From Bacteroidales bacterium (lineage in GTDB: Bacteria > Bacteroidota > Bacteroidia > Bacteroidales > Muribaculaceae), in contig CAAGDX010000014.1 in NCBI GenBank assembly GCA_900768685.1, positions 2,399-66,398 on the forward strand: 64,000 nucleotides of DNA, written 5' to 3'. The notes beneath the pieces are model-generated. The model saw nothing but the letters and a program-made list of their open reading frames with translations. It was not told the origin of the DNA and ran no database searches. The translations under genes and the position numbers were made by a program. How positions within the stretch are numbered: position 1 is the stretch's first letter; every line of letters starts with the position of its first letter. Below are positions 12,169-31,176 of the stretch, piece after piece.

Positions 12169-12203
12169 AAGGACAGAAAATTATCATCTGTCCTTATTTT
12201 TTT
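12169..12203 (+). terminator. Rho-independent terminator after feoAB
   Basis: Stem AAGGACAGA (12169-12177) pairs with TCTGTCCTT (12187-12195) around a 9-nt loop, followed by A + T7. Confidence 0.75.
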
Positions 12204-12216
12204 GTAAAAAAACGCT

Positions 12217-12289: not shown

Positions 12290-12312
12290 TATAAAATTTG
12301 TGTAAGAACGTT

Positions 12313-12320
12313 AATTTTGC
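12313..12320 (+). promoter_or_regulatory. Bacteroidetes -7 promoter motif TAATTTTG upstream of the DUF1573 gene
   Basis: Exact TAnnTTTG, 39 nt upstream of the ATG at 12359. Confidence 0.5.
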
Positions 12321-12358
12321 AACGTAATAATACGCTTAAACGCATTTGCCGTTTAACT

Positions 12359-12784
12359 ATGAATATAATTGTGTTTTATAAAAGGCTTATTGCTTTAGTG
12401 TTTCTGTTGTTCACTGTTGCATCTGTATCCTCCCAAAGTGAAATAGGGTGGATAGGTGGAACGGTTTTTGAGTTTGGAGAAATACGTGAAGCAGATGGTG
12501 AAATCCGGCATTGTTTCCGGTTTCGCAACAATGGCGAAGAACCTTTCAGCATTATTCGCATAAGCACAAGTTGCGGTTGCACGAATGTGGATTACACACG
12601 AACCCTTATTGAACCCGGTGACACAGCAAAAATAGACGTTACATTTAATCCCGCAGGACGTGACGGAAAATTCCGCTCTCGCCTTGCAGTATATACGGAT
12701 TCTCCGGACGGCATGAACAGTCTTTTCCTCAAAGGATATGTAATACCGTTGGAAAAACCGGATAGCACCTTGGTTCAGGAATAG
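12359..12784 (+). CDS. DUF1573 domain protein (secreted, ASH/PapD-like Ig fold)
   Basis: Signal peptide MNIIVFYKRLIALVFLLFTVASVSSQ. FEFGEIREADGEIRHCFRFRNNGEEPFSIIRISTSCGCTNVDY...GDTAKIDVTFNP is the typical DUF1573 pattern, including the sCGCT motif. The start was moved from the ORF-track 12263 to the ATG that precedes the signal peptide and follows the promoter motif. Confidence 0.75.
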   Translation: MNIIVFYKRLIALVFLLFTVASVSSQSEIGWIGGTVFEFGEIREADGEIRHCFRFRNNGEEPFSIIRISTSCGCTNVDYTRTLIEPGDTAKIDVTFNPAGRDGKFRSRLAVYTDSPDGMNSLFLKGYVIPLEKPDSTLVQE

Positions 12785-12908
12785 CGTAGAGGTTTGGGGA
12801 AAGTGAAGCGGATATTAAGTCATAAAATGTGGCATAAATATAGAATACTTAACAAACAGCATAAAACAATTAATTATCTCAAATATTAACTCTAAAAACA
12901 GTGTTAAA

Positions 12909-15836
12909 ATGAAAAAACTTTTATCATTTTTCTTGATGACTGTCATTTCAACTGCCACAATGTTTGCAGCAAGAAACTGGACTTCTGTCGAGTATCAGAA
13001 CCAGGCTGTTGCATACGTAGCACTCGTTGATGGTGACGGAAATCCGATTAGTGTGGGAGAAAACACTACTCTCGGTGCCTTCATTGGTGATGAGTGCCGT
13101 GGTATTGCAGAAATCTCCACAGTAGGGACAACCACTGCTTCCTCACTGTTCACCCTCCGTATTGGTGTGAATCCTGATGAAGGAACGCAGAATGTAACCC
13201 TCGTTGTTAAATGTTACGAAACGGAATACACTCTTTCAAGTGCTATTACCGTAGATGGCACGGACCAGACATTCGGTGAGCCGTCAACACCTCTTACTCG
13301 TACATTTATTGCTGCTACTACTCTCAGCCTTCCGGAAACACTGGAAGTAAATGTGGGCGGTACTGTCAATCTTTTGGACAATCTTACCATCACTCCGTCT
13401 AATGCCAATCTTCCTGATGAGATTGTATGGGAATACGGAAACAGTAAGGATTATATCAAGGTTGAAAACAATGTCCTCACAGGTCTCAAGGCTAACCGGA
13501 CAGGTGCATACCTTGGTGTAAGTTTCGGAGCACCTAACAGCAGTGTACCAAGTGCTAATACAAATGTAATTGTAAATCAGCCTATTACAGGTATTACACT
13601 CAATCCGAATTACCCGGAGGCTACTATTCACGTTGACATCTACGATTCAGAAACCCTCACAAATGCATTGCAGTCAATAATTGTGATTACTCCGGACGAT
13701 GCTACGGAAACTGTAGTTTGGGTTCCTTCTGATGAAACTGCATTTGAAGTAAATTCAACAGTGACTAACGGTTGGACGCCGGTAAAAGCAGGTACATTTA
13801 CTATGACAGCAACTGCAGTTGGTGGTGCAAAATTTGCTGTGACTGTGATTGTTCGCCAGCCGGTAGAAAAATACGCACAGTTTTATGAAATACTCACAGT
13901 GACTGTAGGTACAGTGGTTTCAGACCTTTTGCCACATACCTTTGCACTCTTCCCGGAAACAGCAACAGACCCGATGTCAGGTATCAGTTATGCCGTATCT
14001 GGCACAGATGACCAAGGCAATGATGTCCTTTCCATGACGGAAGGCGTTATCACAGCAGAATATGTTGGTAGTGCAACGGTTACGGTTACTCACTCGGATA
14101 TTCCTAATATGCCGTGGACAGTATCTGTCAATGTAGTGAAACTGCCTACAGAAGCAGACTTCTCTATCAGCCAAGATCCACTCGTGATTGAAGTGGCACA
14201 AGATCTCCTTGGTACACTTGATATTACATCAAATATTCAAGGCAATATCAAGACAGGTGAATATGCTTTTGATGCACTTGTTTGGGCGGAAAACTATGGT
14301 GAAGGAACACCGGTGCTTACTATAAACGGTAACGGAAGTACGGCAGCATATCAGTTTATCGCTGCTGCATACGGCACAAGCCGCATTGAAGGTACTATCA
14401 CAACTCTCCTCAGCGGTTTTGACGGCAAAGGCAATTTCAGCAATGCAATTCCAAACGTATTCACAACAGGCTTCGGCATCCAAATCACACAGGCTCTCTC
14501 TGCAATTTCATTCAATCCAATCACAATCGGTTGCGAAGACACATACGAACTCGTAATCACCACAACTCCGGAAAATTATCCTCTCGCAGACGTTCAATTC
14601 ACAATTCCGACTGCAGTTGAAGATGAAGATGCACCGTATTTTACTCTTACTCGCATAGGAAATGAAAACAAGTGGACATTAGAGCCAAAACTCGTTGGTG
14701 AGTCTCGTTTGACTGCAACTGTAGGCAATCTTAGTGATACTCAACCCGTTAAGATAACTCAACGTGTAAACCTTGGCGAAGGTTGGAATTGGCTTTCACT
14801 CTATTCCGGTACGGAAAGTGCAGATGCCTTTCGCACAAACTATGCTAATGCTCAGGAAGTACGTTCACAGACACAATTAATGTACAATGACCCGAATTTC
14901 GGCTTCTTCGGCTCTCTCGTTTCACTTGACAATTCTTCATTCTATCGTGTTAAAGTGAAAGAAGGACAAACTGTTGCTTATTTGGCTGAAAACACGGATC
15001 TTTTCTCAAACGAGAGCAAAGAAGTTTCATTCAAAGCAGGATGGACATGGTTCAGCAACCGCTATTGCAAGAATCGCAACTTCCAAGAAGTATTTGGAAA
15101 AGTGATTCTTCCGGCAAACAGTTACGTTATTGCTCAAACCGGATTTATGACATTTGACTCTGAATCAAGTACATGGGTTGGTACTCTCAAATCACTCAAT
15201 GCAGGTGAAGGTTACATTGTTTACAATGCAGGCGATGCTGCTGCTAACGTATTATTTATGCCGGACAGATATCTCACTGAATATCAAGCACCTGAATCAG
15301 GCAATTCATTTGACATCTACAGCGAAACGCCGGATTTCAACTACAATCCAAATCAGTTTGCTGAAAATATGTGTATTGTCGCTGAATTTGCAGGCGACCT
15401 TGAACCGAATCGTTATGCTATCGGTGCATTCGTAGATGGTGAATGTCGCGGTGAAGGCAAGATGATTGGTAACCGTTTCTTCATCACTGTTGCCGGTCAG
15501 CCTCAAGACGTTGTAAACTTTGAACTCTTTGACCGTGCTACAGGCAACTATATTACAGTTGATAACAGCGTGAACTTCACAAAACTCCTCGGTACTCTTT
15601 CCGAACCTGCAATCCTCAAAGCAGAAGTTACAGGCGTGGATATGATTTCAAAAGATGGCTCTGTGAATATCGGTGTTGAAAACGGCAATATTGTAGTTGA
15701 CGGTGCAGAAGCAGAAAACGTAAAAGTTTATACCGTTTCAGGTCAGCAGGTATCAGGTGAAAACCTTGCAAGCGGCGTTTATGTGGTGAAAGTTGCTACT
15801 GAAAACGGCGTTATCACTCGCAAGATTGTGAAATAA
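12909..15836 (+). CDS. 975-aa secreted protein with Ig-like (Big_2-type) repeats and a T9SS C-terminal sorting domain
   Basis: Signal peptide MKKLLSFFLMTVISTATMFA. Big_2-like segments are present (e.g. LEVNVGGTVNLLDNLTITPSNANLPDEIVWEYGNSKDYIKVENNVLTGLKANRTGAY). The C-terminus VKVYTVSGQQVSGENLASGVYVVKVATENGVITRKIVK is typical of a Por/T9SS CTD. Confidence 0.8.
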   Translation: MKKLLSFFLMTVISTATMFAARNWTSVEYQNQAVAYVALVDGDGNPISVGENTTLGAFIGDECRGIAEISTVGTTTASSLFTLRIGVNPDEGTQNVTLVVKCYETEYTLSSAITVDGTDQTFGEPSTPLTRTFIAATTLSLPETLEVNVGGTVNLLDNLTITPSNANLPDEIVWEYGNSKDYIKVENNVLTGLKANRTGAYLGVSFGAPNSSVPSANTNVIVNQPITGITLNPNYPEATIHVDIYDSETLTNALQSIIVITPDDATETVVWVPSDETAFEVNSTVTNGWTPVKAGTFTMTATAVGGAKFAVTVIVRQPVEKYAQFYEILTVTVGTVVSDLLPHTFALFPETATDPMSGISYAVSGTDDQGNDVLSMTEGVITAEYVGSATVTVTHSDIPNMPWTVSVNVVKLPTEADFSISQDPLVIEVAQDLLGTLDITSNIQGNIKTGEYAFDALVWAENYGEGTPVLTINGNGSTAAYQFIAAAYGTSRIEGTITTLLSGFDGKGNFSNAIPNVFTTGFGIQITQALSAISFNPITIGCEDTYELVITTTPENYPLADVQFTIPTAVEDEDAPYFTLTRIGNENKWTLEPKLVGESRLTATVGNLSDTQPVKITQRVNLGEGWNWLSLYSGTESADAFRTNYANAQEVRSQTQLMYNDPNFGFFGSLVSLDNSSFYRVKVKEGQTVAYLAENTDLFSNESKEVSFKAGWTWFSNRYCKNRNFQEVFGKVILPANSYVIAQTGFMTFDSESSTWVGTLKSLNAGEGYIVYNAGDAAANVLFMPDRYLTEYQAPESGNSFDIYSETPDFNYNPNQFAENMCIVAEFAGDLEPNRYAIGAFVDGECRGEGKMIGNRFFITVAGQPQDVVNFELFDRATGNYITVDNSVNFTKLLGTLSEPAILKAEVTGVDMISKDGSVNIGVENGNIVVDGAEAENVKVYTVSGQQVSGENLASGVYVVKVATENGVITRKIVK

Positions 15837-16005
15837 TCACGAAGAATCTCTCGGAGCAAACATAGTGAACTCCGATAAGTAACATATATGATGAGAATAG
15901 TCGGGGCGGTTTATCCGCGTTTAACTATGAATTTTTTGGAACACCGTTCCGACTTTTCTCTTTTTTCAAAATCCGTTTACACACTATTAGATATAACAGC
16001 ACTAA

Positions 16006-17757
16006 ATGAGAATCAATAATCCCCAACTGTCCGCAATGTTCACTCGCAGGCTGAGGCAGGTTGCAGTTTCTGCAGCTTGTGCTTTTGGCATTATTGGGGC
16101 ATCGGCACAGGATATATCTCAGATAGGAAAAAGCGACCCGCTGATAATAACAGGTTCAATAGGAACGCAAAACACGTATTATCACACGTCAATGGGAGCC
16201 GGCTATATGTCACCCTTGAGCAACAGCGTATATGCGAACCTTAACATCCGTATTTACGGTTTTTCCATGCCGTTCTCGTTTTATTACACAAATAATAACA
16301 CGAGTTTCAGCTATCCGCAATTTTCATTTAATATTTCTCCGAGTTATAAAGACTTTACGGCACACATCGGACAGTCCTCAATGCCTTTCAGCACATACGT
16401 GATGAATATGTCGTTTAACGGTGTGGGACTGGAATACAAAGGTAAAAAATTCCGCACTTCCGCTTTTTACGGTGTGCTGAAGAGTGCTGTGAACGATAAT
16501 CCGGAGGACCCGAACCCGCGTAAACCGCAATATCGTCGCATTGGCTGGGGATTCAGTGCAGGCTATGGCAGCGGACGCAAGAGCATAGACGTCTATTTCC
16601 TCCGTGCTTACGACCAGGAAAGCTCTATCAATGAACTTTACAGAGAAACCTATCGCCCGCAGGAAAACCTTGTTGTGGGTGTCAAAGGTTCTTACGCAAT
16701 AAAAAATTTCCTCTCTTTCCATGTTAATGCAGCCACTTCCGCTTTTACGGCAGATACGGAGTCACAAAAAGTGACTGTGGGACAGGCTACTAAGTACGAT
16801 GGCATTTTTCAGCCGCGATACACAACTATACTCCGTTTTGCAGGCGATGCTTCTCTCGCATTCACCACGAAATGGTTTAACACATCTCTATATTACAAAA
16901 TAATCCAACCGGACTACACTTCGCTTGGAACATACTATACATCTAACAACTATCACAGTTTAGGTGCTACTTTCGGCACAACGCTTTTCAAACGCATTAC
17001 ACTCAGTGCCAATTTCTCCCTTCAGAAAGATAACCTTACAAAAAAACAATTATATACCACAAAAGGCTACGTCTATTCCGGCATGGCAGGCTTCCGCATT
17101 ACGGACAATTTTAACGTCAATGCCATGTACAACGGGTATCTGCAGGACCAGGCAGACGGTACGGTGGTGCTGAACGATACAGTTCGCGTTCACCGTATTC
17201 TTCACAGTGTCAGCCTTTTGCCTTCAATAGTTTTTCAACGCACTAACCTTGACCATTCATTCAGCCTTTCCGGTAACTACACTACGAACAAGGACTTGAA
17301 CATTTTCTCTATAGGGATGTCAGACGTAAAAACACTTGCACTCGGTGCATCTTATACTCTGAACGTAAAACCTTGGGATACAAACTTCTCGTTTAACTAT
17401 AGTCACCAGCAGTCCGAAGGCTTTGAAACAACATATCTTTCAGACGTGGGCTCGTTCACAACCGGACGCAGTTTCCTCAAAGACAATAACCTTTCCACTT
17501 CCGCCACCGTTTCCATTTGCTACAATGAGGTGAAAAAGACTTCCAAAAACCTCTCTATGGCACTGGACCTGAGTGCAAACTACACGCTGAAGAAAGCACA
17601 CTCTTTCAGTTTTTCCGCATCTTTCAGCAAGTACGGCGACGTGAACCTTACCAAGACCAAATCATCGCTTGACGGAACGGATATCCGCTTGACGATGAAC
17701 TACGTATATACATTTACACTTCTTGAAATCAAACGTAAAGCAAAGGAGAAAAAATGA
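16006..17757 (+). CDS. 583-aa predicted outer-membrane beta-barrel protein (family not recognised)
   Basis: Signal-like N-terminus (...VAVSAACAFGIIGASAQD; an alternative ATG lies at 16036). The whole length is rich in alternating aromatic/polar beta-strand patterns (SFSYPQFSFNISPSY, NFSFNYSHQQS, DIRLTMNYVYTF). The stop overlaps the next start (ATGA at 17754-17757). Confidence 0.6.
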   Translation: MRINNPQLSAMFTRRLRQVAVSAACAFGIIGASAQDISQIGKSDPLIITGSIGTQNTYYHTSMGAGYMSPLSNSVYANLNIRIYGFSMPFSFYYTNNNTSFSYPQFSFNISPSYKDFTAHIGQSSMPFSTYVMNMSFNGVGLEYKGKKFRTSAFYGVLKSAVNDNPEDPNPRKPQYRRIGWGFSAGYGSGRKSIDVYFLRAYDQESSINELYRETYRPQENLVVGVKGSYAIKNFLSFHVNAATSAFTADTESQKVTVGQATKYDGIFQPRYTTILRFAGDASLAFTTKWFNTSLYYKIIQPDYTSLGTYYTSNNYHSLGATFGTTLFKRITLSANFSLQKDNLTKKQLYTTKGYVYSGMAGFRITDNFNVNAMYNGYLQDQADGTVVLNDTVRVHRILHSVSLLPSIVFQRTNLDHSFSLSGNYTTNKDLNIFSIGMSDVKTLALGASYTLNVKPWDTNFSFNYSHQQSEGFETTYLSDVGSFTTGRSFLKDNNLSTSATVSICYNEVKKTSKNLSMALDLSANYTLKKAHSFSFSASFSKYGDVNLTKTKSSLDGTDIRLTMNYVYTFTLLEIKRKAKEKK

Positions 17758-20700
17758 AAAACTACAAAAGATATATAGTTTCGGCACTATTAGCCGTATT
17801 AGGATTGTTTAATGCCGCGGCAGAAGAACTTGTAGTGAATGTGACTACAAAAAATCCTATTTTGCCTCCACAGGTGATGTACATAATGTCCAATCCGGGG
17901 CAGTACCTGACGCTTTCCCTCTCAAACACCACGAATGAGCAGCAACTCTTCTATCTTGGTGTGGAATTGCATCAGATTTCGCCCACAAATGATATCAATA
18001 TCATTATTCCGGGTCTTACTATGCCTAAAGAGCCGTTCGTGATTGCACCTATGGGTGTCAAAATCATGAATGCCAAGGAGATGTGCGGAATGTTTAACCA
18101 CGTCCGCATGCAGGACATCACTATGCCGCAGGAACTTTTCGATAATGTGGCATCCGGCAATTTCGGTAACCTTCCGGAAGGCAAATACGAACTTTACATT
18201 TACGTTTATAAATGGGATCCTACGCTTTCTTCTCCTGTTTTGCTGAATAATCCGAGCCAGAGCAAGTGCGTTTTCGACGTTTGCTACAGTGCTCAGCCAC
18301 CGGCATGGATTTCACCTGTGGCTATAGGCGGAGAAGTGGCTGAACTAAGCCAGGAAGTGCCTTTGCTCCAGTGGATTGCCCCGGTACTGAACTGTGCACC
18401 CAGGGCTGCCGTATATACGTATGATATCAGGATAGTGCAAATGCTCCCGGGACAGTATCCGGAACTTGCTATTGAAAATAATAGCGTTGTTTATCAGGCA
18501 TTTAACCTCACTATGCCGCAGTGTATGATTCCTATAAACTACGTTAATGCCATGTCTCCGGCAGAAACGTATGCCGCACAAATCACTGCAAAGACAAATG
18601 CCGCACAGGAAGGTTCGCTCGGCTACATCAATGTGCAAAACGATGGCAAAAGCGACATCAAACTTTTCCGCATAAAGAGTTTTGCTGCGATTCCGGAACT
18701 TGAACCGGAACCCGAACCGGAGCCTGAAGAAGGTGATAAAAAAGGTAAAGAAAATATAGAGATTCACATGATGGGTGGCAGTGAAATGTCGGATTCGCTT
18801 TACACCCTCCGCAGTGTGAAAATCATCACTCCGTCGTTTGATGAAGATGCCGGTGCAAGAAAAGTCTATACAAACACGAATATTCCGGTAAAATGGAAAG
18901 CCCCGGGTATTGAAGCAAGTATCGGTGAACGTCCTGATACACTGCAATTCGAATACAATGTGGAACTTTTCCGCAATGACGACTATGCAGAACTTGCGGA
19001 AATGGTTCGCAAAGAGCCTGTATATAAAAAGCAGGGCGTAAAAATCCTTACGGATACTATCCGCTGGAGAGAAATTGAAGACAAAGTGGAGAAGGGTGAC
19101 TATCTCCTCCTCAGAGTTACCCCTATATGTAAAAATGAAACTTCGCTCCACTATACAGACACAACGAATACTATTGACTTCGCTCTTACAGAGCATTTCA
19201 CTCGTCGTTTCTTCCAGTGTGCAAACCAGGTTGATATTAAGAACGAAAAGCCTACCACTCTCAAGGCTAAAGACCTGAAAGGCAAGACTATTACCATTGG
19301 TGAATATGAACTCGTGCTTGACGGTGACTTGAAGGACCTCAAGGTTCAGGGTTGCTTCTCCGGTACAGGTCACGTGATTTGGGAACCACTCCTTGCCAAG
19401 TGGGAACTCTGCGTGAAATTCGACTCTATTGCCGTAAATACGGAAAATCAGGTGTATGCCGGACAAGTTGTGACATACGCCGGTCCTAACAACAAGATGA
19501 CCAGCTCGGAAGTGGTGGATAAACTCTTCTCAGACTGGGGTATAGATAACCTTATCGGTGACACCGGAATACCTTATGCAAGCAAACTTGAAGGCGAAGT
19601 TAAAGATAAGGCAAAATCACTCGCAGAGAATATAAATCTGGAAAAATATTATTCCGAAGTTACTAAGGGCTATGCACTTATAGACAATCTCCTTTCTTCA
19701 GGAACAGTAAAAGACGTTGGTTTCCCGCTTGAATTGCCTAAGGAGATAAACCCGTCGCCGGTGAATATTCAAATCACCACTATGAAGTTTGCCCCGACGT
19801 ATGCCACAATGGACCTTATAGGTACTTTCGTGGTGCCGGAAACAAGGGCTACGCAAAACCAGATTCTTGTGTTTGGCGCACCGCGTATGTGTATCAGCCC
19901 TAAGAGTCTCATTCCGGAAGGCGGACATGTATCATTGCTGAAAGATTTCACGGTGAAAGACCCAAGTTCCGAGTATGAACTGACGTTTAATGCTCCGGCT
20001 GATGTTCTTGAACCTGAAGACGGATGTTTCCTTGCATGGCAGGAAAACAAGTTTGCTGCCGTGAACATGGATATAGACATGAAACTGCCTAACCTCTATA
20101 AGGTGGAAGGTGAAACGGTGACAGACCAAAATCCTATTCTTAACGTCAAAGCACTTATAGAAAAATGGGACAACTGGACTGCTGATGCTCACCTGGATTC
20201 ATTCGAGCATGAGAGTCTGCCGGGATTCACTTTTGAGGAGACGGAAGTGATTATAGACTACTCAAAACGCATAAACCGTCCGGAAATGGCTGATTTCCCG
20301 AAAGACTACGATTTCTCCAAAGCCGGAGTTAAAGAAGCAAGCCATGACGACTGGCGAGGAATGTATATCAGCAATATTTATATGGCATTCCCTAAATCTT
20401 TCAGTTTTGACAAGAAGAGAATGAAACTTGGCTTGAAAGATATGTTTATAGACAAGTCCGGATGCTCACTCCGTGCAAGTATAGACAATGCAATAGACTA
20501 CAGTGCAGGAAAAAGCGGCTCTGTAGGCGGTTTCTCATTCTCGCTTGATGAGATTTTTGTAGATGTGCTGCAAAATGATTTCCGCGACTTCGGTTTCTCC
20601 GGAAAACTGGAAATTCCGCTCTTCAAGGGTGAGATTGATTACCGCTGCGACATTTTCCCGCAAAAAATAAAAGACCCGAAAAAATCCGGTTTCGCTTATG

Positions 20701-23700
20701 TTTTCAAGACCTCACAGATTGAAGACTTGGACTTCAGTTTCATTCTCGGTGAACTCTCGCTGAAGAAAGAACTTACGTATTTCCTTGTGGAGGCTATTGA
20801 CGACGAAAACGGAGATACTAAGACAAATGTGGAACTTTGCGTGGGCGGTACGGTAGATATCGTAGGTGCACAGAAAATAAACGGTGAACTGAAAAAAGTG
20901 CCGTTACCACTGGATTTGCACATCCCGGGTATCAAGTTCTGCAAAATGCGTATTGCAAACAACAAGAGTTTCATTTCACAGTACGCCCGAGAACTCCAAA
21001 CTCGCCGCGACTCTGTGGAAAATGCTTGGGGTGCAAACAAGTCAGACAGTATTGCCAACTTTGACGGACAAACCGTTCACTGGTGGAATGAAACAAAAGA
21101 ATTTGTGTTTGGCGAAAAATCTTCCACTCCCGTATATTTGAGTTTGGGTAGGTGGGGATATGCTTCACCTGAAAAGAGCATAGGCTGCTTCAAGTTTGCT
21201 TTGACGGATTATAAGTTTAATGTTTCAAAGAGTCCGGAAGGTGCGGATTTGTCGTTCCGTCTTGGTGGTAAGATTACGTTCAGCGACGATTTGGACATTT
21301 CTGCCGGTACCGGAATTTCCATCCATTCCAAAATTTCAAATATAGATGATATTTCAAATATCAAGATTTCATACGATAGAACGCAGTTTGAAAGCGCATC
21401 TCTTGAAATAAAGACAGGACAATTCAGCCTTGTCGGTGAACTGAAGGTGGTGGATAACAGCGATTCCGGTGACAAAGGCTATGAAGGTAGCGTGGATATC
21501 AGTGTTATGGATATCTTCTCTTGCACAACTTCCGGCGGCTACTACGACCATGAAGGCGAAGACGGACGTTTCTCTTGGGGCTGGTTCTTGCTCAAGTGTG
21601 ACGAGATTAAGACTTTCAAGCCTGTTGTCCTTTACGGAATCAAGGGCGGATTTTATATGAACTGCTCGCCTACAGACGACGAAAAGAGTGCAAAACCAAA
21701 CAAGGGCGCTGTGGGTGTAATCCTCGGTTTGGGTATTAAAATGGGTGACGGTGGTACTTTCGACGGCTCGTTTGACTGTACTGTCGTGGCTAAGAAAAAG
21801 CGACTCACCACTTTCAAATTTAATGGTAAGATAGACTGCGGTGGCATGATTAAGACGGACGTGGGAGTGGTTTATCAAAACGACTCTATTGACAAATACT
21901 TCCAACTTGACGTTACCGTTGACGTTTCTGCCGATTGTGGCGTGGGTGCCGCTATGAAAGAACTTGAAGCAAGCCTCTCAGAACTGCAGAAACTGAATGA
22001 TAAATTTGAAGGCTACATAAAAACTGCAGAGCAATCGCTCAATGGTGTCTTGGGTGACAAAAACTCTACTGCAGGAAAAAATGACTATGAGAAGAATCAG
22101 CAGAAGGCACAACAAATGCAGAACGAGGACAAGAATAGTGATAAAAAATCTGGTTCTTCTTGCTGTACTTTCACGATAAATCTGCAACTCAAAATTACAT
22201 TTAAGAAAGAAGGACGTACGCTTAATTCACCGGACTGGTACGTATATCTCGGTGTTCCGGACCCGAAAGAACAGCGTTGCAAATTTACTCTTGTGGATTT
22301 CAAGTCAAAAATCGTTACTGTAAGTATTGGTGCAGACGCTTATCTCTGCTTCGGTTCAGAATTGCCTAATGACGGACAACTTCCGCCACTGCCGGAAAAC
22401 GTACGCACATTCCTTGACGGTAAGCAGCATGGTGATGCCGTCAGCGATGACATTTCACAACTCAATGCCGCACAGGAAAAGGCAAAACAAGAGTTCCAAA
22501 AGAATGCACTGGACCTCAAACTTGGAGGTGGTGTAATGCTTGGTGCTTCCGCTTGGGGATACATTGACGTAAACCTCGGGCTGTTCTACGGCTCTATGGG
22601 TGCTACAATGGGATTTGACCTTGTTGTAGGTCGTTTGCAGGGAAATCAGATATGTATGAACACTGGCGGTTTCCCGGGTATAGGACAGGAAAAATATTCT
22701 GTTGGTCCTAACGGCGAAAAAGTTTTGGAATCCGTTGACCACTGGTACGGTAAAGGACAGCTTTATGCTTATCTCTATGCAAAATTCGGTCTTAACATAA
22801 ACCTTGGCTTCTTCAAGAAGAAAATTGCCCTCATCGACTGCGGTATCGGCGGTGTTCTCCAGTGTGCACTCCCGAATCCGAACTACTTCACGGGTAAGGC
22901 AAGAATTAAAGTAAGACTCCTTGACGGACTTATCAACATCAACAAGAAATTCTCATTTGAGTGCGGTGACAAGTGCGACCTCTTCCTTGGTAATGCTCTT
23001 GACAACTACATCCTCTTTGAACACTTCTCTATAGGTGTTGAAGAACCTGAAGATGTGGAAGACAACAAGATTGACCCGAATCTTTCCGCTCAGCCATACG
23101 TGGTTACACAGAGTGAAATCGGTCGCCAAATCAGTGTTGTGGACCCGAACTATCAGCAGCGTCTCCAGGAAAGCGGTAAAATCGGTGAACGTGAATCTGA
23201 TGAAACCGTGGAAGACCTTGCAAGCCGCAGGTTTAAATTTATGATTCTTGGCAAACCGATGATTTATGAGTACAATACTCTTGACGATTTGAAGAAAGAT
23301 AAAAACTGCGTGGATTCCACTGCTTACAATCAGCGACATGTAGGTGGTACTGAAAAACAGTACATCACTGTGAACAGATTCAAACCGAACAAATACTATA
23401 AACTCAAAATCACAGGTACTGCAAAAGAGCTCTACCATGGACAATGGGAAGACCCGCAAGTATTTGACACCACTATTTCCGATTTCAAATTTGAAAAGTG
23501 GACTCAAACAAAATTCTTCTATTTCGCTACTCATGAACAGGGTGAACTCGTTGTAGAAGATGATGCGGATTTGCAGCCGTTCACAAAACTCGCTTATCCG
23601 TGTAAATATACGAATAATGGACCTGAACTGATGTATTCAACGGAGAATGATTTGGTTTATGCTCAGTGTATAGACATCAAACATCCTATTATCGCTCTCA

Positions 23701-25634: not shown

Positions 25635-25661
25635 TAAACTATAATTTAGAATATATACAGT

Positions 25662-27953
25662 ATGAAAAAATATAATGGTCTTAAAAGTCTCGTATGGGCG
25701 GCAATGGCAATGATAGCCCTCCCTGCCGTTGCAACCTTGGACGGTGAAGTTACAATCACGGATGAGCCGTTTACCCTCCCGGACACATCTGCCGCAGTTG
25801 GAGCACCTCCACGACTGATTTTTACTCCTCATGCAGAGGATTCACTCCACCCGGATGATGTGTGGGTACCTATCACTCTCACCGGTCGTGCATACGGTGA
25901 CAGTATTGTTCTCCGCTGGGCTGTGCCGGACTTCCCTACATGGAGCTTCCTGACGCGTCGTGGCATCACGGTTCTTCGTGTAAGCAATTTCGAGACAAGT
26001 TATGAACCGGACACTATCGCCACTAATATCAAACCGCTCACACTCGAGCAGTTCAAAGCAAAATACCCGAACCAGGCAGACTCTCTGGCATACATCGCTA
26101 TGGGTTCGCTCTACGGCGACGGTGACCTCAAACCGGAGCAGACAAACTATGAGCCGGGAACTATCGGTGCTTTCACGGAACTTGAACAAGACCAAAATAT
26201 GAGAATCATGTCTGCTTTCCTCGTTTCCGAGTGGAGACAAGACCTTGCAGACGCTCTCGCTCTTCGCTTTGTGGATAGAAACGTGAAAAAGGGAGAAACG
26301 TATGCATACATCGTTATGCCTACAGTGCCGGACAATGTAAACAAATTCTTTATTTCTCCGGGACATTTCACGGTGAAAAATGAGAAATTCAAACCTGAAC
26401 CATACAATATCGAACTTAAGGACTCAATAACTGAACATGGAAAAGTGCTCCTCACATGGAACGACACCATTCACGGCAGTTTTGAGATTTTCCGCCGCGA
26501 TGCAGGCAAAAAGGATTGGCTCAAGATAAATCAGGCACCATATTTGCCCCCGCTGAAGTTTGACCTTGACGTGCAAGACGCAATTTTTGAAAACACTGTT
26601 GCGGAATTAGGTACTTACGAATATGCCGTGGCTGCACACGATGCTTTCGGAGACCTTACTCAGATGTGTAAACCCGTAAAAGTGAAGTTTAGAGATACTC
26701 GTCCGCCAAGAGGTCCTATTATCACTAAAATTATTATTGACCGCCCTGTGGAAGGTGACCCGTCTGCGGAAATTTATGCGGATATCTATTTCTACAAAGA
26801 TACTATCGAGGACGACTTTGTGCGTTTCGTTCCACTATACTACAACGAACGTGACTCTCTGAAGGAATGGCGTCTCCTTTCCAAAAAATACATCGCTCCT
26901 ACGGATACTATGGTGAGAATAGACGTGACAAAAGTTTCTACGGGTATGATTACTATCGCTGCCGTGGATACTGCGGAAAATATGGGTTATGCTATGCCGC
27001 AACTCCTCCGTGTGGAAGACCTTAAGCCACCAAAAGCTCCGCAGAACCTCCGTGCTATGACGGAACTTGACGGAACAATCCTTCTTTCATGGGAACTTGA
27101 CGATGACCTCGACGTTTATTACTACGACGTATTCTTTGCCAACGATACCACTCACTCTTTTATGCGTGTAAACACGGATATGATTAAGAGCAAATCATAC
27201 ATGGACACCGTTTCAATCGATGCCAACCAGCGTTACATCTATTATGCTGTTCGTGCCGTGGATTATGCACGAAATCACAGTGAATTTTCGGATACACTGC
27301 AAGTGCTCCGTCCAAACCCGTATCCGCCTACGGTGGCACACTTGGACTCTGCCTGGGTTGATGACCACAGCATAAACATTCGCTGGATTGCCGGCGGTGA
27401 TGAAATGATTAAGAACCACCACGTCTATCGTCGCAAACAGGGACAATCCACCTGGGAAATTATTGCCACGCTCGACGGCGACAGCATTGCTGCAAATGGA
27501 CATAAAATTGAAATTCACGATACCCCGGAAATAGACCGCTATAACCGCTACGAATACGCGGTGGAAACATTTACTTTCTGGAATGTAAGCTCCGGTCTGA
27601 CTCCTATCTATTACGCTCGTATGAGAGGTCAAGATATGATAGACGTGGATATAAAACTCTTTGCTACATACGATAAAAAATCAGAGGAAGTTCGCTTGGC
27701 TTGGGAAGTGGGAAAAGTCCCTGTTGATGCACCGTATTTCTTCTGCATTTACCGTAAATCCGCAAACGACAACTCTTATACTTTTGTGACGGACGCTCCG
27801 AGCCATATCCGTTCGTTCTCCGATGCTCGTACTCGTCCCGGTGAAACAGCGGAATACTACGTTTCCATTCGCTTTGATGATGGCAGAGGCGGCTCGATGT
27901 CTAATGTGGTGAAAGCCGTGGTGCCGCCAAAACCAAAACCGGAAGAGAAATAG
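25662..27953 (+). CDS. 763-aa secreted protein with fibronectin type III-like domains
   Basis: Signal peptide MKKYNGLKSLVWAAMAMIALPAVA. FN3-like segments are present (PPKAPQNLRAMTELDGTILLSWELDDDLDVYYYDVF; HVYRRKQGQSTWEIIATL; FCIYRKSANDNSYTFV). It has a C-terminal PPKPKPEEK tail. Confidence 0.7.
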   Translation: MKKYNGLKSLVWAAMAMIALPAVATLDGEVTITDEPFTLPDTSAAVGAPPRLIFTPHAEDSLHPDDVWVPITLTGRAYGDSIVLRWAVPDFPTWSFLTRRGITVLRVSNFETSYEPDTIATNIKPLTLEQFKAKYPNQADSLAYIAMGSLYGDGDLKPEQTNYEPGTIGAFTELEQDQNMRIMSAFLVSEWRQDLADALALRFVDRNVKKGETYAYIVMPTVPDNVNKFFISPGHFTVKNEKFKPEPYNIELKDSITEHGKVLLTWNDTIHGSFEIFRRDAGKKDWLKINQAPYLPPLKFDLDVQDAIFENTVAELGTYEYAVAAHDAFGDLTQMCKPVKVKFRDTRPPRGPIITKIIIDRPVEGDPSAEIYADIYFYKDTIEDDFVRFVPLYYNERDSLKEWRLLSKKYIAPTDTMVRIDVTKVSTGMITIAAVDTAENMGYAMPQLLRVEDLKPPKAPQNLRAMTELDGTILLSWELDDDLDVYYYDVFFANDTTHSFMRVNTDMIKSKSYMDTVSIDANQRYIYYAVRAVDYARNHSEFSDTLQVLRPNPYPPTVAHLDSAWVDDHSINIRWIAGGDEMIKNHHVYRRKQGQSTWEIIATLDGDSIAANGHKIEIHDTPEIDRYNRYEYAVETFTFWNVSSGLTPIYYARMRGQDMIDVDIKLFATYDKKSEEVRLAWEVGKVPVDAPYFFCIYRKSANDNSYTFVTDAPSHIRSFSDARTRPGETAEYYVSIRFDDGRGGSMSNVVKAVVPPKPKPEEK

Positions 27954-28021
27954 TTCCCCAGAGCATACGCTCAAACGAGATAAATATAAAAAAGTACAAT
28001 ATATAAGCTGTAAGTATATAT

Positions 28022-28705
28022 ATGAAAAAATTACTGATGATAATGGCACTTCTCCCCGTACTCACTTCGTGCGGCGACTTCTTCGTCTTTGAGTCGCAGC
28101 CTGAAGAATGGGAGGGCGTGACCATGAAAATCGATTTTCAAGACGCTTACTTGATGGTGGGTGACTCTTTGCCGCTTACCGCCACTCTCACGCCTTATAA
28201 TCCCAATGAAAGTCCTATCTACTGGAGCAAGTCCGACACCGTTTGCACAAAAATGCAAAATGATACGCTTGTGGCACTTTATCCGGGCACTTTCACCGTT
28301 ATGGCACAGGTTGGAAACGGTGCTGTGACAGATGTTGCGGAAGTCAACGTGATAGACTATTGGGACGTGTCCGAATTGGAAACACGCTATCCGTACGATA
28401 TGCTGTTTTATGCCAAAATAGACGTTGACGGTGAAGAATTTAACGATTCCACAATGATTGTTTCCGCAACCGTTCTCGGCAACGTGGCAGGCGTGGCTGT
28501 GAAACGCAATGCTTTCGGTATTGACTATGCGGAAATTCGCGTTTGGGCTGATGCGGACACCAAGCAGGGCAAAGTAACTTTCCAATGTTACGACCGCAAA
28601 AGACATAAATTATATAGATGCAACGAGCGTCCGGAGTACGACGCTTTTGCTACTTACGGCACTCTTTCTGAATTATATCCAATAACCTTTAATACTTCCG
28701 AATAA
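28022..28705 (+). CDS. 227-aa lipoprotein with an Ig-like (Big_2-type) domain
   Basis: Lipobox LLPVLTSC. VGDSLPLTATLTPYNPNESPIYWSKSDTVCTKMQNDTLVALYPGTFTVMAQVGNGAVTDVAEVNVI fits the Big_2 pattern. Confidence 0.7.
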   Translation: MKKLLMIMALLPVLTSCGDFFVFESQPEEWEGVTMKIDFQDAYLMVGDSLPLTATLTPYNPNESPIYWSKSDTVCTKMQNDTLVALYPGTFTVMAQVGNGAVTDVAEVNVIDYWDVSELETRYPYDMLFYAKIDVDGEEFNDSTMIVSATVLGNVAGVAVKRNAFGIDYAEIRVWADADTKQGKVTFQCYDRKRHKLYRCNERPEYDAFATYGTLSELYPITFNTSE

Positions 28706-31020
28706 TGAAAAAGTTTATCAGAATATCTATTTGGGCGTTTTTCCTCACTCTTTTCTCCGCTTGTACGCTTATGCTTGACGAGCCGGAAAATGTTGGTGAA
28801 GAAGTTCCGGAACAAAACGGTGACGGTTGGGAATCTCCAAGAACGGAAACCGAGGATATGGGTTCGGTTACATATCAGTTCACGAAAACTACGGTATATC
28901 TTGATGAGTCGTATCGTCAGTATATCATAAAGGCTGATTGTGACACTGCTTCAAAGCATATTGACATATACATGAAAAAATCCACGCCGAAAGACCTTAT
29001 TCCGCAGCGTGGAACAACCTTAGCTTCAAATCTTTACGATATCTTTGATGTTTGGGTGGTTCATAAAGTGGATTTCCTTGAAAATGTGGATGCTAACACT
29101 ATTAAAATTTCTTGTTCAAGTGTTGAAACAGATGAAGTTTTTGAATCACTTAAATTTGATGCCTCAGTTTATGTAGTAGAGGATTCTACGGAAAGCAGAA
29201 ATGGTGAAAGGGTGCTTAAATTTGTGCCTGCGTATGGTTCACGTTATGAAGACTCTACCACATTCCCTATTTGTCTCGGGATGCTAGCTTACGGTACTCC
29301 GGGTGCAAAAATAGATAAAGGCTTTTTGGAAGGTACAGGAATCTCATCATTTGGAGATATGACAATAAAACCATTAAATGCATTGAATTTATTCGGCCAT
29401 TTTGATGGAGCTACTGCAGTTGGCTTTGTTTCTACACTAAGGTTTGATGTTATGTACGATGATACAGATGATTGTATTTTTGATTTACATGGTTATTTTA
29501 TCAATCAACTTTTTTATTGTTCTACATGTCAAAGTATTAAAGGTGGTATAGTAATACCTTTTTTGGGTACTACGGGAGATGTGTCTTTTGATAGAGCTTA
29601 TGACGGATTTTCTATGAAAGTGGATAAAAATAAAACTCCATTCTTTATAACACTTGCTGCACCGAGTTTACCTTTAAATGTTGGTCCTTTCTTGATAACA
29701 TTAAGTGTTGAACCAAATATTGTGTTTTGTGCTTACGCGGAATTAACCGCCCCTATCTATAACTCAACATTACTCAAAAAGAAATTTGTTAAAGAATTCG
29801 GACTTCACTTTAACAAAGATGACAAAAAAGACAGATTTTTTTATCCTGAGGAAGGAAAAGAGGCTGCTGAGAAGGACGAGGAAACAGTACTGGTAGGAGA
29901 AGGTTTTGATAATTTAAAGTTTGGAATTCAAACAGTTCTTTCTTGTCCTGTTACAGCCACATTGCAAAATACAATTTCGCTCTCTATAGGTCCAACTTTT
30001 GAACCAACATTTGAGGTTAAGTTCCCTTTAAAAGGAAAGAAAAAAGATTTATATCAGATTGAAGATAAATATCTTTATGAAAACGAGGGTTATGAATCGT
30101 CTTTCTCTATGCCATTCTCAATAACTGCAAAAGGAACTATAGGGTTTAAAAAATGGATGTCTGCGGATTTATTTACGTTAACAATTAAATTACCTTCTGT
30201 AACTCCTATAGTATCAGACTTAATTGATTCATACTCCATAAGTTCAATAAAAGAGGATAAAGAAAAAACAACATATTCTGAAGTAGCATATCGTGCCCAG
30301 ATTAAATCAGACTTCGGTTTAATTAGTTATGACGATGTTGTAAGTCTGGCTATATTTGATAGTAATTGCAATTTTGTTAAAACAGTAGAAGCCACTAAGA
30401 GTGGTTATTCTTCTTATGAGTGTGAATTTACACTACCAATAGAATATGATGATAAAGGTCTTGTAAGCAAAACATCATATACTGCATTTGCGTTAAGAAA
30501 AATGCCTTTTAAAAATGAATATTTAGCAAGTGACATTTATAGCTTCAATCTTGGTGGTGATTGGGCTGTTCTTTCCAAATGTTCTCAGCTTGACACTCAA
30601 AATTGTAAACCAAGAAAGGTAAACCCGTATGATTATTCTGATGACCCGGAATTGGAATACTGCTATGCATTTAAGTTTACAGCAGACAGGCATACAAACT
30701 ATAACTCGACTTTCTATGTCCAATTTGATATATATCTGGAAAGTGGAGAATTGCTTTATTCTCTAGAACCTATAAAAGTTGGAAGATCTTGGAAAGGTGA
30801 TCGTTTAAATTATTTAGGCTATATGTATTTACCTTATAGGGACTATTTTGTAAAAGTTACAATGTTTCAGGAAGATGACGAAACCGGAGAAATGTACTTT
30901 TTAGCGGAAAAGAATATCTCCTTAAAAAAAGATTATAGTTCTTCTGAGAAATTTAATCCCGATGATGAAGCAAATATGAAGAATTGGAAGAAAAAAGGTT
31001 ATACAGTGGATGGCGAATAA
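28705..31020 (+). CDS. 771-aa lipoprotein, unknown function; last gene of the envelope locus
   Basis: Lipobox FLTLFSAC. The start ATG shares one nt with the upstream stop (TAATG at 28703-28707). Composition becomes markedly AT-rich from ~29300 onward. A strong terminator follows. Confidence 0.75.
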   Translation: MKKFIRISIWAFFLTLFSACTLMLDEPENVGEEVPEQNGDGWESPRTETEDMGSVTYQFTKTTVYLDESYRQYIIKADCDTASKHIDIYMKKSTPKDLIPQRGTTLASNLYDIFDVWVVHKVDFLENVDANTIKISCSSVETDEVFESLKFDASVYVVEDSTESRNGERVLKFVPAYGSRYEDSTTFPICLGMLAYGTPGAKIDKGFLEGTGISSFGDMTIKPLNALNLFGHFDGATAVGFVSTLRFDVMYDDTDDCIFDLHGYFINQLFYCSTCQSIKGGIVIPFLGTTGDVSFDRAYDGFSMKVDKNKTPFFITLAAPSLPLNVGPFLITLSVEPNIVFCAYAELTAPIYNSTLLKKKFVKEFGLHFNKDDKKDRFFYPEEGKEAAEKDEETVLVGEGFDNLKFGIQTVLSCPVTATLQNTISLSIGPTFEPTFEVKFPLKGKKKDLYQIEDKYLYENEGYESSFSMPFSITAKGTIGFKKWMSADLFTLTIKLPSVTPIVSDLIDSYSISSIKEDKEKTTYSEVAYRAQIKSDFGLISYDDVVSLAIFDSNCNFVKTVEATKSGYSSYECEFTLPIEYDDKGLVSKTSYTAFALRKMPFKNEYLASDIYSFNLGGDWAVLSKCSQLDTQNCKPRKVNPYDYSDDPELEYCYAFKFTADRHTNYNSTFYVQFDIYLESGELLYSLEPIKVGRSWKGDRLNYLGYMYLPYRDYFVKVTMFQEDDETGEMYFLAEKNISLKKDYSSSEKFNPDDEANMKNWKKKGYTVDGE

Positions 31021-31031
31021 GTATGAGATAA

Positions 31032-31065
31032 AAGGCTTGCAATTCACCCTTGCAAGCCTTTTTTA
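31032..31065 (+). terminator. Rho-independent terminator closing the envelope locus
   Basis: Stem AAGGCTTGCAA (31032-31042) pairs with TTGCAAGCCTT (31050-31060) around a 7-nt loop, followed by a T-run. Confidence 0.8.
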
Positions 31066-31130
31066 TGTCTTTGCCAATGCAGAACAATATTTTTTTTGAG
31101 TAAAAAAATACAATAATCGGTATAAATGCG

Positions 31131-31138
31131 TAACTTTG
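31131..31138 (+). promoter_or_regulatory. Bacteroidetes -7 promoter motif TAACTTTG upstream of aroE
   Basis: Exact TAnnTTTG, 39 nt upstream of the ATG at 31177. Confidence 0.5.
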
Positions 31139-31176
31139 CAGATTGAAGAAAATTCAATATCTAAATAGCATTTTTT

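Follow-up and report, generated by a model that had tools for sequence, protein, structure and literature searches.

Seven same-strand genes at positions 12359-31020 of the window (a 64,000-nucleotide stretch of a gut Muribaculaceae genome) are bounded upstream by a promoter element of Bacteroidetes type and downstream by the region's strongest terminator. The reading that we favour, tentatively and at somewhat less than even confidence, is that they make up a regulated operon specifying an outer-membrane complex of Bacteroidota that has not been described before. The complex would probably serve to keep at the cell surface a giant binding protein that is modular and diversifies rapidly. Three of the products, an outer-membrane beta barrel (g3), the giant protein itself (g4) and a protein with FN3-like repeats (g5), are by sequence homology co-inherited across three orders of Bacteroidota. 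In the giant, the N-terminal module (about 1800 residues) is conserved, and the C-terminal module can be exchanged. We found no published description of this system in the literature.

Anatomy of the locus and its control region

The features of the locus, all on the + strand, are given below with the evidence for each.

12224-12280, +, candidate operator with three copies of TTTTGTCCG, one of them inverted (sequence read)
12312-12319, +, -7 promoter element TAATTTTG of the Bacteroidetes type TAnnTTTG (motif match)
12359-12784, +, g1, 141-aa exported DUF1573 protein, HYDIN/VesB-type Ig-like (Pfam PF07610, 3.8e-27)
12909-15836, +, g2, 975-aa exported protein with a T9SS type-A C-terminal sorting domain (TIGR04183, 2e-5)
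15936-15952, +, weak hairpin and T-rich run between g2 and g3 (7-bp stem, 3 GC pairs)
16006-17757, +, g3, 583-aa outer-membrane beta barrel of about 26 strands (AF2 model)
17754-25634, +, g4, 2626-aa exported giant protein (ORF, signal peptide)
17754-19193, +, g4 residues 1-480: signal peptide, conserved N-terminal domains and Pro/Glu-rich linker (conservation)
19194-23120, +, g4 residues 481-1789: conserved core (conservation, AF2 model)
23121-25634, +, g4 residues 1790-2626: variable C-terminal region (alignment coverage of relatives)
25662-27953, +, g5, 763-aa exported protein with FN3-like repeats (Pfam fn3, 0.011; PHROG gpJ, 2e-6)
28022-28705, +, g6, 227-aa lipoprotein with an Ig-like domain (lipobox LTSC; PHROG, about 1e-4)
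28705-31020, +, g7, 771-aa fast-evolving lipoprotein (lipobox FSAC)
31030-31062, +, intrinsic terminator (13-bp stem, then a T run)

A preliminary description of this DNA had proposed a single promoter-to-terminator unit of seven same-strand genes, all for exported proteins, and the ORF list bears out this layout: the intergenic gaps from g1 to g7 are 124, 169, -4, 27, 68 and -1 nt, the stop of g3 and the start of g4 overlapping by 4 nt. As read from the translations, the N-termini of g1-g5 are signal-peptide-like and those of g6 and g7 carry lipoboxes. Pfam and NCBIfam profile searches found no cytoplasmic enzyme, ATPase or regulator encoded in the cluster, again as had been proposed. Within the window the cluster is flanked by feoAB and a shikimate dehydrogenase gene. 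The -7 element is the sole + strand match to TAnnTTTG in any intergenic gap of the cluster, and the hairpin at 31030-31062 is the best terminator-like site within 12000-31300; the weaker hairpin between g2 and g3 could possibly act as a partial terminator or attenuator. The ATG of g1 at 12359 sits inside an ORF that opens at a TTG at 12263.

Upstream of the -7 element, by 30-60 nt, two direct copies of TTTTGTCCG are spaced by 21 nt. The corresponding tandem pattern TGTC[CT]GA-N13-15-TGTCNG occurs 17 times in the 1.66 Mb of related loci plus the window, against 3.95 times in shuffles, with matches mostly on the + strand and upstream of the cluster; in nine sequences (the window and eight loci) it stands about 100-215 nt before the first cluster gene. 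By this pattern the candidate repeat operator is conserved. Regulator genes adjoin the cluster in related loci (L001, L004-6, L087, L088 and L089), and none adjoins it in the present window. A regulator of the TPR-sensor/AraC type or of a two-component system would turn expression on by binding the 21-nt-spaced TTGTCCGA repeats upstream of the promoter.

Conservation of gene order and partner proteins

Among 86 related loci, all those that are not truncated at this point keep the order and strand of g2, g3 and g4, and each sufficiently long Bacteroidales locus has the same succession of T9SS-tailed protein, barrel, giant, FN3 protein, lipoprotein and lipoprotein. Complete six- or seven-gene versions were found in four different genomic contexts. 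The barrel-giant-FN3 triad is also present in Spirosoma (Cytophagales) and in one Chitinophagaceae genome (Chitinophagales), with homology confirmed: Spirosoma proteins are 26% identical to g3 (E 2e-41) and, for a 705-aa protein, 24% identical to g5 (E 2e-35), and the Spirosoma giant matched g4 solely within residues 1-480 in a word-indexed search. It is because this synteny is conserved, and not from statistics on the window alone, that the adjacency of the genes can be said to go beyond chance. That unrelated exported proteins lie side by side fortuitously, a weakness that the preliminary description had itself raised and in favour of which we can name nothing beyond absent functional annotation, is refuted by an order and strand kept in all testable loci and across three orders, and we give it practically no credence. 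Conserved synteny, together with the absent matches to known machinery set out below, supports the proposal of a dedicated and uncharacterised envelope system. Among the same loci the barrel is the system's most conserved protein (53-82% identity), compared with 30-57% for the giant and 24-57% for g2. One Paraprevotella assembly has two copies of the cluster (L021 and L029).

The partner proteins differ in how closely they follow the core. The DUF1573 assignment of g1 was upheld, and the gene varies in place, standing first in locus L001 and last in L089; upstream of the barrel it was undetected by tblastn in most of the more distant loci. It is an accessory gene, outside the phylum-wide core. 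The protein g2 had been described as a Big_2 protein with a T9SS C-terminal domain, of which the second part stands: its TIGR04183 score of 24.5 bits against a cut-off of 23 is marginal but real, and its tail matches the C-terminal region of HBP35 (5y1a, 7e-6), whereas Pfam found no Big_2 domain. Positional homologues of g2 precede the barrel in the Bacteroidales loci that are not cut off there. They end in CTD-like, T9SS-type tails, which points to a surface location, and g2 is presumably a fast-evolving surface partner.

Downstream, g5 comes after the giant wherever a locus extends beyond it, and its FN3 assignment survives with weak scores. The lipoprotein nature of g6 is confirmed by its lipobox, and its Ig-like domain is seen solely through PHROG phage tail/structural families, one of them annotated with an Ig domain; lipobox-bearing homologues of 225-303 aa occupy its position in L001, L004, L089 and L090. 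For g7, also a lipoprotein as had been described, we found no family or PDB match and no recognisable domain; its positional homologues (782-846 aa, with a lipobox) share 25-34% identity with it in the part that aligns, close to the N terminus. PHROG matches of the cluster are limited to g5 and g6, to tail and structural families, and we read them as FN3- and Ig-type domains; PADLOC anti-phage defence families gave no match to the cluster.

The barrel and the giant protein

The AF2 model of g3 (pLDDT 72) is a barrel of 26 strands without a plug and without a periplasmic domain, in keeping with the barrel-like character first ascribed to it. Searches with g3 against Pfam, NCBIfam and PDB sequences gave no match. 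A canonical aromatic C-terminal beta-signal is found at the ends of distant g3 homologues. Its top Foldseek match is MtrB (6r2q_B, E 9.5e-12, TM 0.52), followed by SlpA, ushers and LptD. With MtrCAB of Shewanella the locus has in common a plug-less 26-strand barrel (in g3, as modelled) and a barrel gene that is accompanied by genes for an exported partner and for lipoproteins presumably exposed at the surface. Unlike MtrCAB, the cluster has zero CxxCH motifs in g1-g7, so no multihaem cytochrome; g3 is without sequence or Pfam relation to MtrB (no MtrB_PioB match), and the barrel is paired with a beta-rich protein of 2626 aa. UniRef gives some Cytophagales homologues of g3 the name DUF5723, an assignment that we rejected, as g3 and six homologues gave no PF18990 match at E <= 1 and hhalign of g3 with the window's own DUF5723 protein gave a probability of 0.3%.

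The giant had no match in Pfam, NCBIfam or PDB (for the profiles, whole protein and tiles at E <= 1). Its N-terminal domains, within residues 1-480, are duplicated in some relatives. A profile of the core retrieved 2160 representative relatives. The core contains several invariant Cys and Gly/Pro motifs. In it, beta domains are followed by a series of about 28 long amphipathic strands or beta hairpins, in which antiparallel strands of 10-20 aa are joined by tight turns, and a poorly conserved helical hairpin interrupts the series; an F-x-F-type strand closes the conserved module before the variable region. The AF2 model of residues 590-1789 is of modest confidence (pLDDT 68.6, pTM 0.41) and its Foldseek matches are weak, all with TM <= 0.15.

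These features raise the possibility that the giant is itself embedded in the membrane, the hairpins forming one or two very large barrels with a C-terminal passenger, as in an oversized inverse-autotransporter-like protein, and g3 serving as an assembly factor or partner porin. The strands of g4 equal those of g3 in length and in hydrophobic/polar alternation, nearly all matches of the core are outer-membrane barrels (LptD, SlpA, ushers, BamA, porins), and the conserved module closes with the F-x-F-type strand. Against this reading are the uniformly low TM-scores, a top match that is the open beta-belt of ApoB100, and turns that are short on both sides of the sheet where g3 alternates short turns with long loops. 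Nor did g4 or its tiles match intimin, inverse-autotransporter or other autotransporter barrels or Big_1 in Pfam, and we consider a membrane-embedded giant unlikely.

After residue 1800-2050 the alignment coverage of g4 by its relatives falls. About one third to two fifths of relatives have the C-terminal region of the window's protein in common with it, the others bearing BspA/DUF285 leucine-rich repeats or unrelated sequence. Relatives of 4300-4700 aa bear DUF285/LRR arrays, and among 12 long relatives Pfam adds no domains other than LRR families, in four, and an L7/L12 C-terminal domain, in two. Long arrays of this kind, in proteins that NCBI names BspA family or LRR proteins, recall the BspA family, from which the window's g4 differs in having no LRR and in the conserved 1800-aa module that defines its own family and is foreign to BspA proteins. 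Pfam searches of tiles found no recognisable binding domain in the C-terminal module of the window's g4, and no enzyme or toxin domain was found by Pfam in this protein or in the 12 long relatives.

A barrel gene lying just upstream of, and here overlapping, the gene for a very large exported protein with a conserved N-terminal and a variable C-terminal region is also the arrangement of two-partner systems (TpsB-TpsA, CdiB-CdiA), and the cluster might by this analogy encode a contact-dependent antagonism device, in which a conserved delivery region would carry a variable effector through a dedicated barrel. We regard this as very improbable. The barrel has about 26 strands instead of 16, no POTRA domain and no Bac_surface_Ag match, in line with the earlier impression, from motifs, that the locus does not match TPS systems; g4 matched no TPS or haemagglutinin-repeat profile (whole and tiles, E <= 1). 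No known toxin profile, as in polymorphic toxins, was found in g4 or its long relatives, and no toxin/immunity pair: a small cytoplasmic gene for immunity is absent, and all products encoded downstream are exported and conserved in position. The locus has four or five further conserved exported partners. The variable modules, of 600-2700 aa, are far above typical toxin tips.

Comparison with envelope machines and a proposed arrangement

The preliminary description had placed the barrel and the giant outside characterised machines, and no profile or fold match puts either of them in SprA/Sov, TamAB, Omp85/TpsA or LptD. A role in envelope biogenesis or transport, with the giant's beta sheets carrying lipid or other hydrophobic cargo in the manner of AsmA/TamB or ApoB and g3 as an LptD-like port, draws on the 26-strand size class that g3 shares with LptD, on LptD among the matches of both models, on ApoB100 as the top match of the core and on the enzyme and toxin domains not found. 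The locus also resembles LptD-LptE in having lipoproteins encoded alongside the barrel. Yet profiles of AsmA, DUF490/TamB and OstA/LptD were unmatched, the g3 model lacks the periplasmic N-terminal domain of LptD, and g4 begins with a cleavable signal peptide instead of an inner-membrane anchor; TamB is absent from the Foldseek matches of the core, a comparison of folds that the model's pTM of 0.41 limits. A hypervariable, often LRR-bearing C-terminal module and the fast-evolving g2 and g7 are atypical of housekeeping machinery such as the essential LptD-LptE. The two copies in the Paraprevotella assembly and the dedicated regulators also speak against a transport role; the present system is accessory, regulated and fast-evolving. 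A transport machine therefore appears to us quite improbable.

Chaperone-usher pili share with the locus the ushers among the structural matches of g3 and the Ig-like DUF1573/HYDIN-VesB-type domain of g1, which the preliminary description had suggested to be PapD-like. They differ from it in that g3 has no plug, no usher N or C domains and no Usher profile (FimD/PapC), that no PapD or fimbrial profile and no pilin subunits were found, and that g1 is outside the phylum-wide core. SprB/SprF-type loci for T9SS cargo belong to the same phylum and likewise place a giant, probably at the surface, next to a barrel, but g3 and g4 had no PorP/SprF, PorV or SprA match in Pfam or NCBIfam, and SprA (8gl6, of a family with a 36-strand barrel) ranked 25th for the g4 core (E 0.026, TM 0.12). 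The type-A C-terminal domain is found on g2 only; g4 matched neither type A nor type B, and its relatives have no universally conserved C-terminus. Because it lacks a T9SS C-terminal domain and a universal C-terminal signal, g4 could stay periplasmic.

In the arrangement that we favour, the giant would first be exported by Sec, and its conserved module would then dock on, or partly thread through, the wide g3 barrel, by analogy with MtrA sheathed by MtrB or LptE inside LptD. This contact of g3 and g4 is inferred, as adjacency and co-conservation are no proof of contact; docked or threaded in this way, the giant would expose its variable C-terminal module. The FN3 array of g5, the lipoproteins g6 and g7 and the T9SS-delivered g2 would be scaffold or surface partners. 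As to function, for which an adhesin complex, a contact-dependent weapon and a surface layer had been put forward, our results favour a variable binding protein displayed at the surface, a role that we infer. It is also possible, though we hold this with considerable doubt, that the barrel-giant-FN3 triad is the core of an unrecognised outer-membrane export and anchoring pathway that is widespread in Bacteroidota. The 26-strand barrel would then act as a sheath that lets a Sec-exported giant without a T9SS signal reach the surface and stay there, and the lipoproteins and the partner delivered by T9SS would make up the rest of the complex. If this were true, the triad would define a kind of surface-display or secretion system that is new and has thousands of variants.

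Anatomy and family content of the cluster

The ORF table and the translations reproduced exactly the seven genes and the spacing reported in the preliminary description, with gaps of 124, 169, -4, 27, 68 and -1 nt from the first gene (g1) to the last (g7):

12312-12319: Bacteroidetes -7 element TAATTTTG (TAnnTTTG), upstream of the first cluster gene
12359-12784, + strand: g1, DUF1573 protein
12909-15836, + strand: g2, T9SS-tailed protein
16006-17757, + strand: g3, the barrel
17754-25634, + strand: g4, the giant (2626 aa)
25662-27953, + strand: g5, FN3 protein
28022-28705, + strand: g6, lipoprotein
28705-31020, + strand: g7, lipoprotein
31030-31062: terminator, 13-bp hairpin and T run

Typical signal peptides at the N-termini of g1-g5 and lipoboxes in g6 (LTSC) and g7 (FSAC) bear out the earlier claim that every product is exported. 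The proposed promoter motif corresponds to the -7 element, of which the intergenic gaps of the cluster contain no second + strand copy, and the strong terminator reported at the far end is the best terminator-like site in 12000-31300. The 169-nt stretch separating g2 from g3 contains a weak hairpin with a T-rich run (15936-15952), which could act as an attenuator of read-through and fix how much g2 is made relative to the genes after it. The cluster is flanked by same-strand housekeeping genes, feoAB upstream and the shikimate dehydrogenase gene downstream, and its G+C content is nothing unusual.

All seven proteins were searched against Pfam, NCBIfam, PADLOC and PHROGs profiles, with Pfam also run on 400-500-aa tiles at E ≤ 1, and these searches yielded only DUF1573, the T9SS tail of g2 and weak FN3- and Ig-type matches. 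The sole solid family assignment is that of g1 to DUF1573 (Pfam, 3.8e-27), as first described, overlapping the HYDIN/VesB Ig-like family. The T9SS C-terminal domain attributed to g2 was also found, as a type-A domain scoring slightly above the NCBIfam cut-off, and this tail matches the C-terminal region of HBP35, a T9SS cargo of P. gingivalis; the Big_2 label of the same protein was not recovered by the profile searches. FN3 signals are present in g5, as had been reported, and are weak. For g6, originally labelled Big_2, an Ig-type assignment is retained through matches to PHROG families of phage tail and structural proteins, one family carrying an Ig-domain annotation, and no Big_2 match was obtained. 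No match to g3, g4 or g7 was found in Pfam, NCBIfam or PDB sequences, even tiled at E ≤ 1, and neither single proteins nor the barrel and giant-core profiles retrieved anything relevant from the PDB sequences. PADLOC gave no defence-system profile for any of the seven proteins, and no model in NCBIfam (June 2026) or Pfam (2025) covers g3, g4, g5, g6 or g7.

Elsewhere in the window, positions 2001-9400 form an island of low GC (0.28-0.34, compared with about 0.43 outside it) with genes at 2144-4264, 4273-7770 and 7767-9368, where a DISARM-type DrmA helicase (PADLOC 5e-157) and DrmB (2e-35) are preceded by a 706-aa protein without family match. The island lies between a serine dehydratase gene and feoAB and is probably an anti-phage defence locus gained by horizontal transfer; within the window there was no sign of a methylase or of DrmC. 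At 47443-50626, a 579-aa protein without Pfam match and, after it, a genuine DUF5723 protein (467 aa, 7.5e-100) look like another uncharacterised gene pair. A polysaccharide utilisation locus at 53912-63775 comprises a DUF6377 protein, a SusC-like TonB-dependent receptor, SusD, a SusE/F-like protein and a GH66 (dextranase-family) enzyme. The window contains no tRNA or Rfam element.

Gene order and a candidate operator

The word-indexed search with the giant gave 64 relatives; all come from Bacteroidales metagenome bins and none bears a family name. Contigs encoding two of them showed the same gene order in unrelated neighbourhoods. Two peptides of the barrel were used to scan 185,579 species genomes; 142 gave a match, and 80 loci were kept. 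Their titles are Bacteroidales (Muribaculaceae, Prevotella, Hallella, Paraprevotella, Barnesiella, Bacteroidaceae) or unclassified, except for a few bins titled as other phyla that we take to be mislabelled; the nearest locus belongs to a Muribaculaceae bin at 98% identity. In tblastn searches with the seven proteins, the synteny on which the preliminary description hinged held throughout: the order and strand of g2-g3-g4 are kept in every locus not truncated there, and g5 follows the giant in every locus where the sequence extends beyond it. Two further genomic contexts confirm a six-gene Bacteroidales core:

Core gene 1: T9SS-tailed protein, 760-1030 aa
Core gene 2: barrel, 571-591 aa
Core gene 3: giant
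Core gene 4: FN3 protein, 722-788 aa
Core gene 5: lipoprotein, 225-303 aa
Core gene 6: lipoprotein, 782-846 aa

The DUF1573 gene stands first in the window and in L001, and last in L089, two of the related loci from other genomes. In the full-cluster loci examined, each product has a signal peptide or lipobox. Conservation is highest by far in the barrel, with 53-82% identity across loci against 30-57% for the giant. Judged by gene order, the adjacency of the cluster genes is meaningful. The cluster is multicopy in some genomes: L021 and L029 both belong to one Paraprevotella MAG, as separate contigs, and L046-L048 carry extra g4-like tblastn matches about 7 kb upstream of the barrel.

Tandem TTGTCCGA-type direct repeats with a 21-nt period closely precede the promoter element (TAnnTTTG) of the first cluster gene in the window and in several other genomes; in L009, L012, L015/16, L020, L034 and L036 they take the form TTGTCCGA-N13. 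The recorded positions are:

Window 12224-12280: three TTTTGTCCG copies, one inverted, the direct pair 21 nt apart, just upstream of the -7 element and before g1
L012, ~6033: repeat site
L015, 2483-2520: repeat site
L020, ~1633: repeat site
L034, 2057-2090: repeat site
L036, 6291-6330: repeat site

There are 17 instances of the tandem pattern in 1.66 Mb, compared with 3.95 in shuffles; most matches are on the + strand upstream of the cluster, and nine sequences (the window and eight loci) have a match some 100-215 nt ahead of the first cluster gene. The cluster adjoins TPR and AraC-type regulators or hybrid kinase-regulator-AraC proteins in L001, L004-6 and L089, and TPR-HisKA_3 kinases with GerE-type regulators in Spirosoma and Chitinophagaceae; in the window no regulator adjoins it. 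Such activators typically bind direct repeats spaced two helical turns. We regard the tandem repeats as a candidate operator, probably recognised by the AraC-type or two-component regulators present beside the cluster in other genomes.

The reach of the family was defined with a giant-core profile of nine sequences (residues 590-1789), scored against 1.84 billion representative proteins. It matched 2160 proteins at E ≤ 1e-3 (50% identity clusters), 1405 of which reach E ≤ 1e-30, and the listed matches are 1900-5500 aa long, evident fragments aside. Distant members carry no Pfam domain and only the names "hypothetical" or "LRR domain-containing". In Spirosoma humi a distant giant of 2003 aa is preceded by a 564-aa g3 homologue (26% identity, E 2e-41) and followed by a g5 homologue (24% identity, E 2e-35); a 945-aa FN3 protein of the Spirosoma cluster also ends in a T9SS-like tail. 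A Chitinophagaceae genome encodes, in matching order, a 569-aa protein of the same size class as the barrel, a giant and a 721-aa protein with fn3, the outer two being putative counterparts of g3 and g5. Relatives of the Spirosoma barrel number 1146 in cultured Cytophagales, for example Spirosoma, Larkinella, Fibrella, Dyadobacter and Runella. Since Spirosoma and Chitinophagaceae show the order barrel-giant-FN3 protein, this triad appears to be spread across the phylum, and the T9SS-tailed protein and the two lipoproteins are, on gene content, additions to it that are constant in Bacteroidales.

Models of the barrel and the giant

The beta-barrel label first given to g3 agrees with its AF2 model (26 homologues, mean pLDDT 72), which has 26 strands and otherwise only a signal peptide. 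Long loops alternate with short turns, as in true outer-membrane proteins, and the Cytophagales and Chitinophagaceae counterparts finish with the canonical aromatic C-terminal strand. The predicted structure is a wide outer-membrane barrel without a plug. Bacteroidales barrels have a conserved basic tail (TLLEIKRKAKEKK) beyond the last strand, at about 17716-17754 in g3; in the Spirosoma and Chitinophagaceae barrels examined there is no such tail and the aromatic strand is the very end. The best Foldseek match was MtrB (E 9.5e-12, TM 0.52), which forms the 26-strand sheath of the Shewanella Mtr complex, followed by SlpA, the FimD/PapC ushers and LptD; single and profile searches of the PDB showed no sequence relation of g3 to any of them. 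A porin-cytochrome reading was rejected as there are no CxxCH motifs. DUF5723, the UniRef label of some g3 homologues, was discarded because PF18990 does not match them, and kinship with the DUF5723 protein of the window itself because the two are unrelated by hhalign.

The giant can be divided as follows:

Residues 1-480: N-terminal domains, duplicated in some relatives (coverage and conservation profiles)
Inside residues 1-480: Pro/Glu-rich linker (coverage and conservation profiles)
Residues 481 to ~1790: core, strongly conserved, with invariant Cys, Gly and Pro positions
Residues 1790-2626: C-terminal region, common to only about 1/3 to 2/5 of relatives

Where this C-terminal region is missing, relatives have either 2500 aa of DUF285/LRR repeats or unrelated sequence in its place. 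The Pfam domains added in 12 long relatives are LRR families (four proteins) and the L7/L12 C-terminal domain (two), and nothing else; no enzyme or toxin Pfam domain was found in these 12. The ribosomal L7/L12 domain (PF00542, 1.9e-19), fused at the extreme C-terminus of P0262 and one other of these relatives, is odd on an extracytoplasmic protein. There is no T9SS C-terminal domain on g4, and the idea that all giants share a C-terminal sorting signal was discarded: the motif F..YRVN[AS][WF][ND]FK is present in only 78 of 193 sequences and at variable distance from the C-terminus.

In the AF2 model of g4 residues 590-1789 (pLDDT 68.6, pTM 0.41), N-terminal helices and beta domains come first, then some 28 antiparallel strands, each 10-20 residues long and joined by tight turns, with a low-confidence helical hairpin interrupting the series. 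The alternation of hydrophobic and polar faces in these strands is as strong as in g3, and the short-turn/long-loop alternation of g3 is absent. Foldseek matches of the core in the PDB were the ApoB100 beta-belt, LptD, SlpA, ushers, BamA and porins, all weak (TM ≤ 0.15), and BFVD gave nothing useful. As these matches are weak, the modelled core may form a barrel or a groove, or lie open as an amphipathic sheet.

Proposed mechanism and significance

Taken together, the features shown or predicted from sequence are an all-exported, co-inherited and regulated gene set, and a giant with a conserved and a swappable module, with T9SS-tailed and lipoprotein partners. In the most economical mechanism, the barrel would hold the conserved module of the giant, or this module would thread through the barrel; the variable module would be displayed as a binding surface, and the remaining proteins of the cluster would serve as scaffold or surface partners. 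This is our best reading, held tentatively and at slightly less than even confidence. A surface binding role is suggested by the LRR modules in relatives and the T9SS tail on g2, by g2, g4 and g7 diverging fast while the barrel evolves slowly, and by the absence of recognisable toxin, enzyme and immunity genes. Less probable rivals are a giant that inserts itself in the membrane in the manner of inverse autotransporters, an AsmA/LptD-like transport machine and a CDI-like weapon.

In its working the system most resembles barrel-plus-partner arrangements (MtrAB, LptDE, TpsBA); it departs from these families in every defining feature testable here. The searchable literature held no description of the system, and descriptions beyond the searched library are possible; multibarrel OMPs (PMC8346858) and Flavobacterium pep25/lbp26 (PMC9950754) were promising at first and proved unrelated. 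Because the tested family features fail, no description was found and NCBIfam and Pfam have no models for g3-g7, we rate the system as outside known kinds, with a function that we infer. The dedicated, uncharacterised envelope system of the preliminary description is supported by conserved gene order and the lack of any family or machine match for the barrel and the giant, and we are confident that the cluster represents a real, conserved and undescribed envelope system.

Bacteroidota are dominant members of gut communities and of many soil ones, and their known surface routes are T9SS, lipoprotein flipping and type V pili. Among the 2160 representative relatives of the giant none bears a family name. 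The question is testable since cultured strains carry homologous clusters, including Hallella seregens ATCC 51272, Hallella faecis and Prevotella sp. P3-122. Should the cluster prove to be a display system, it would represent a new way for Bacteroidota to present adhesins to hosts, food particles or other microbes, would account for a class of "hypothetical" or "BspA-like" giants in Prevotella and Muribaculaceae genomes, and would give structural biologists a new barrel-partner architecture to study.
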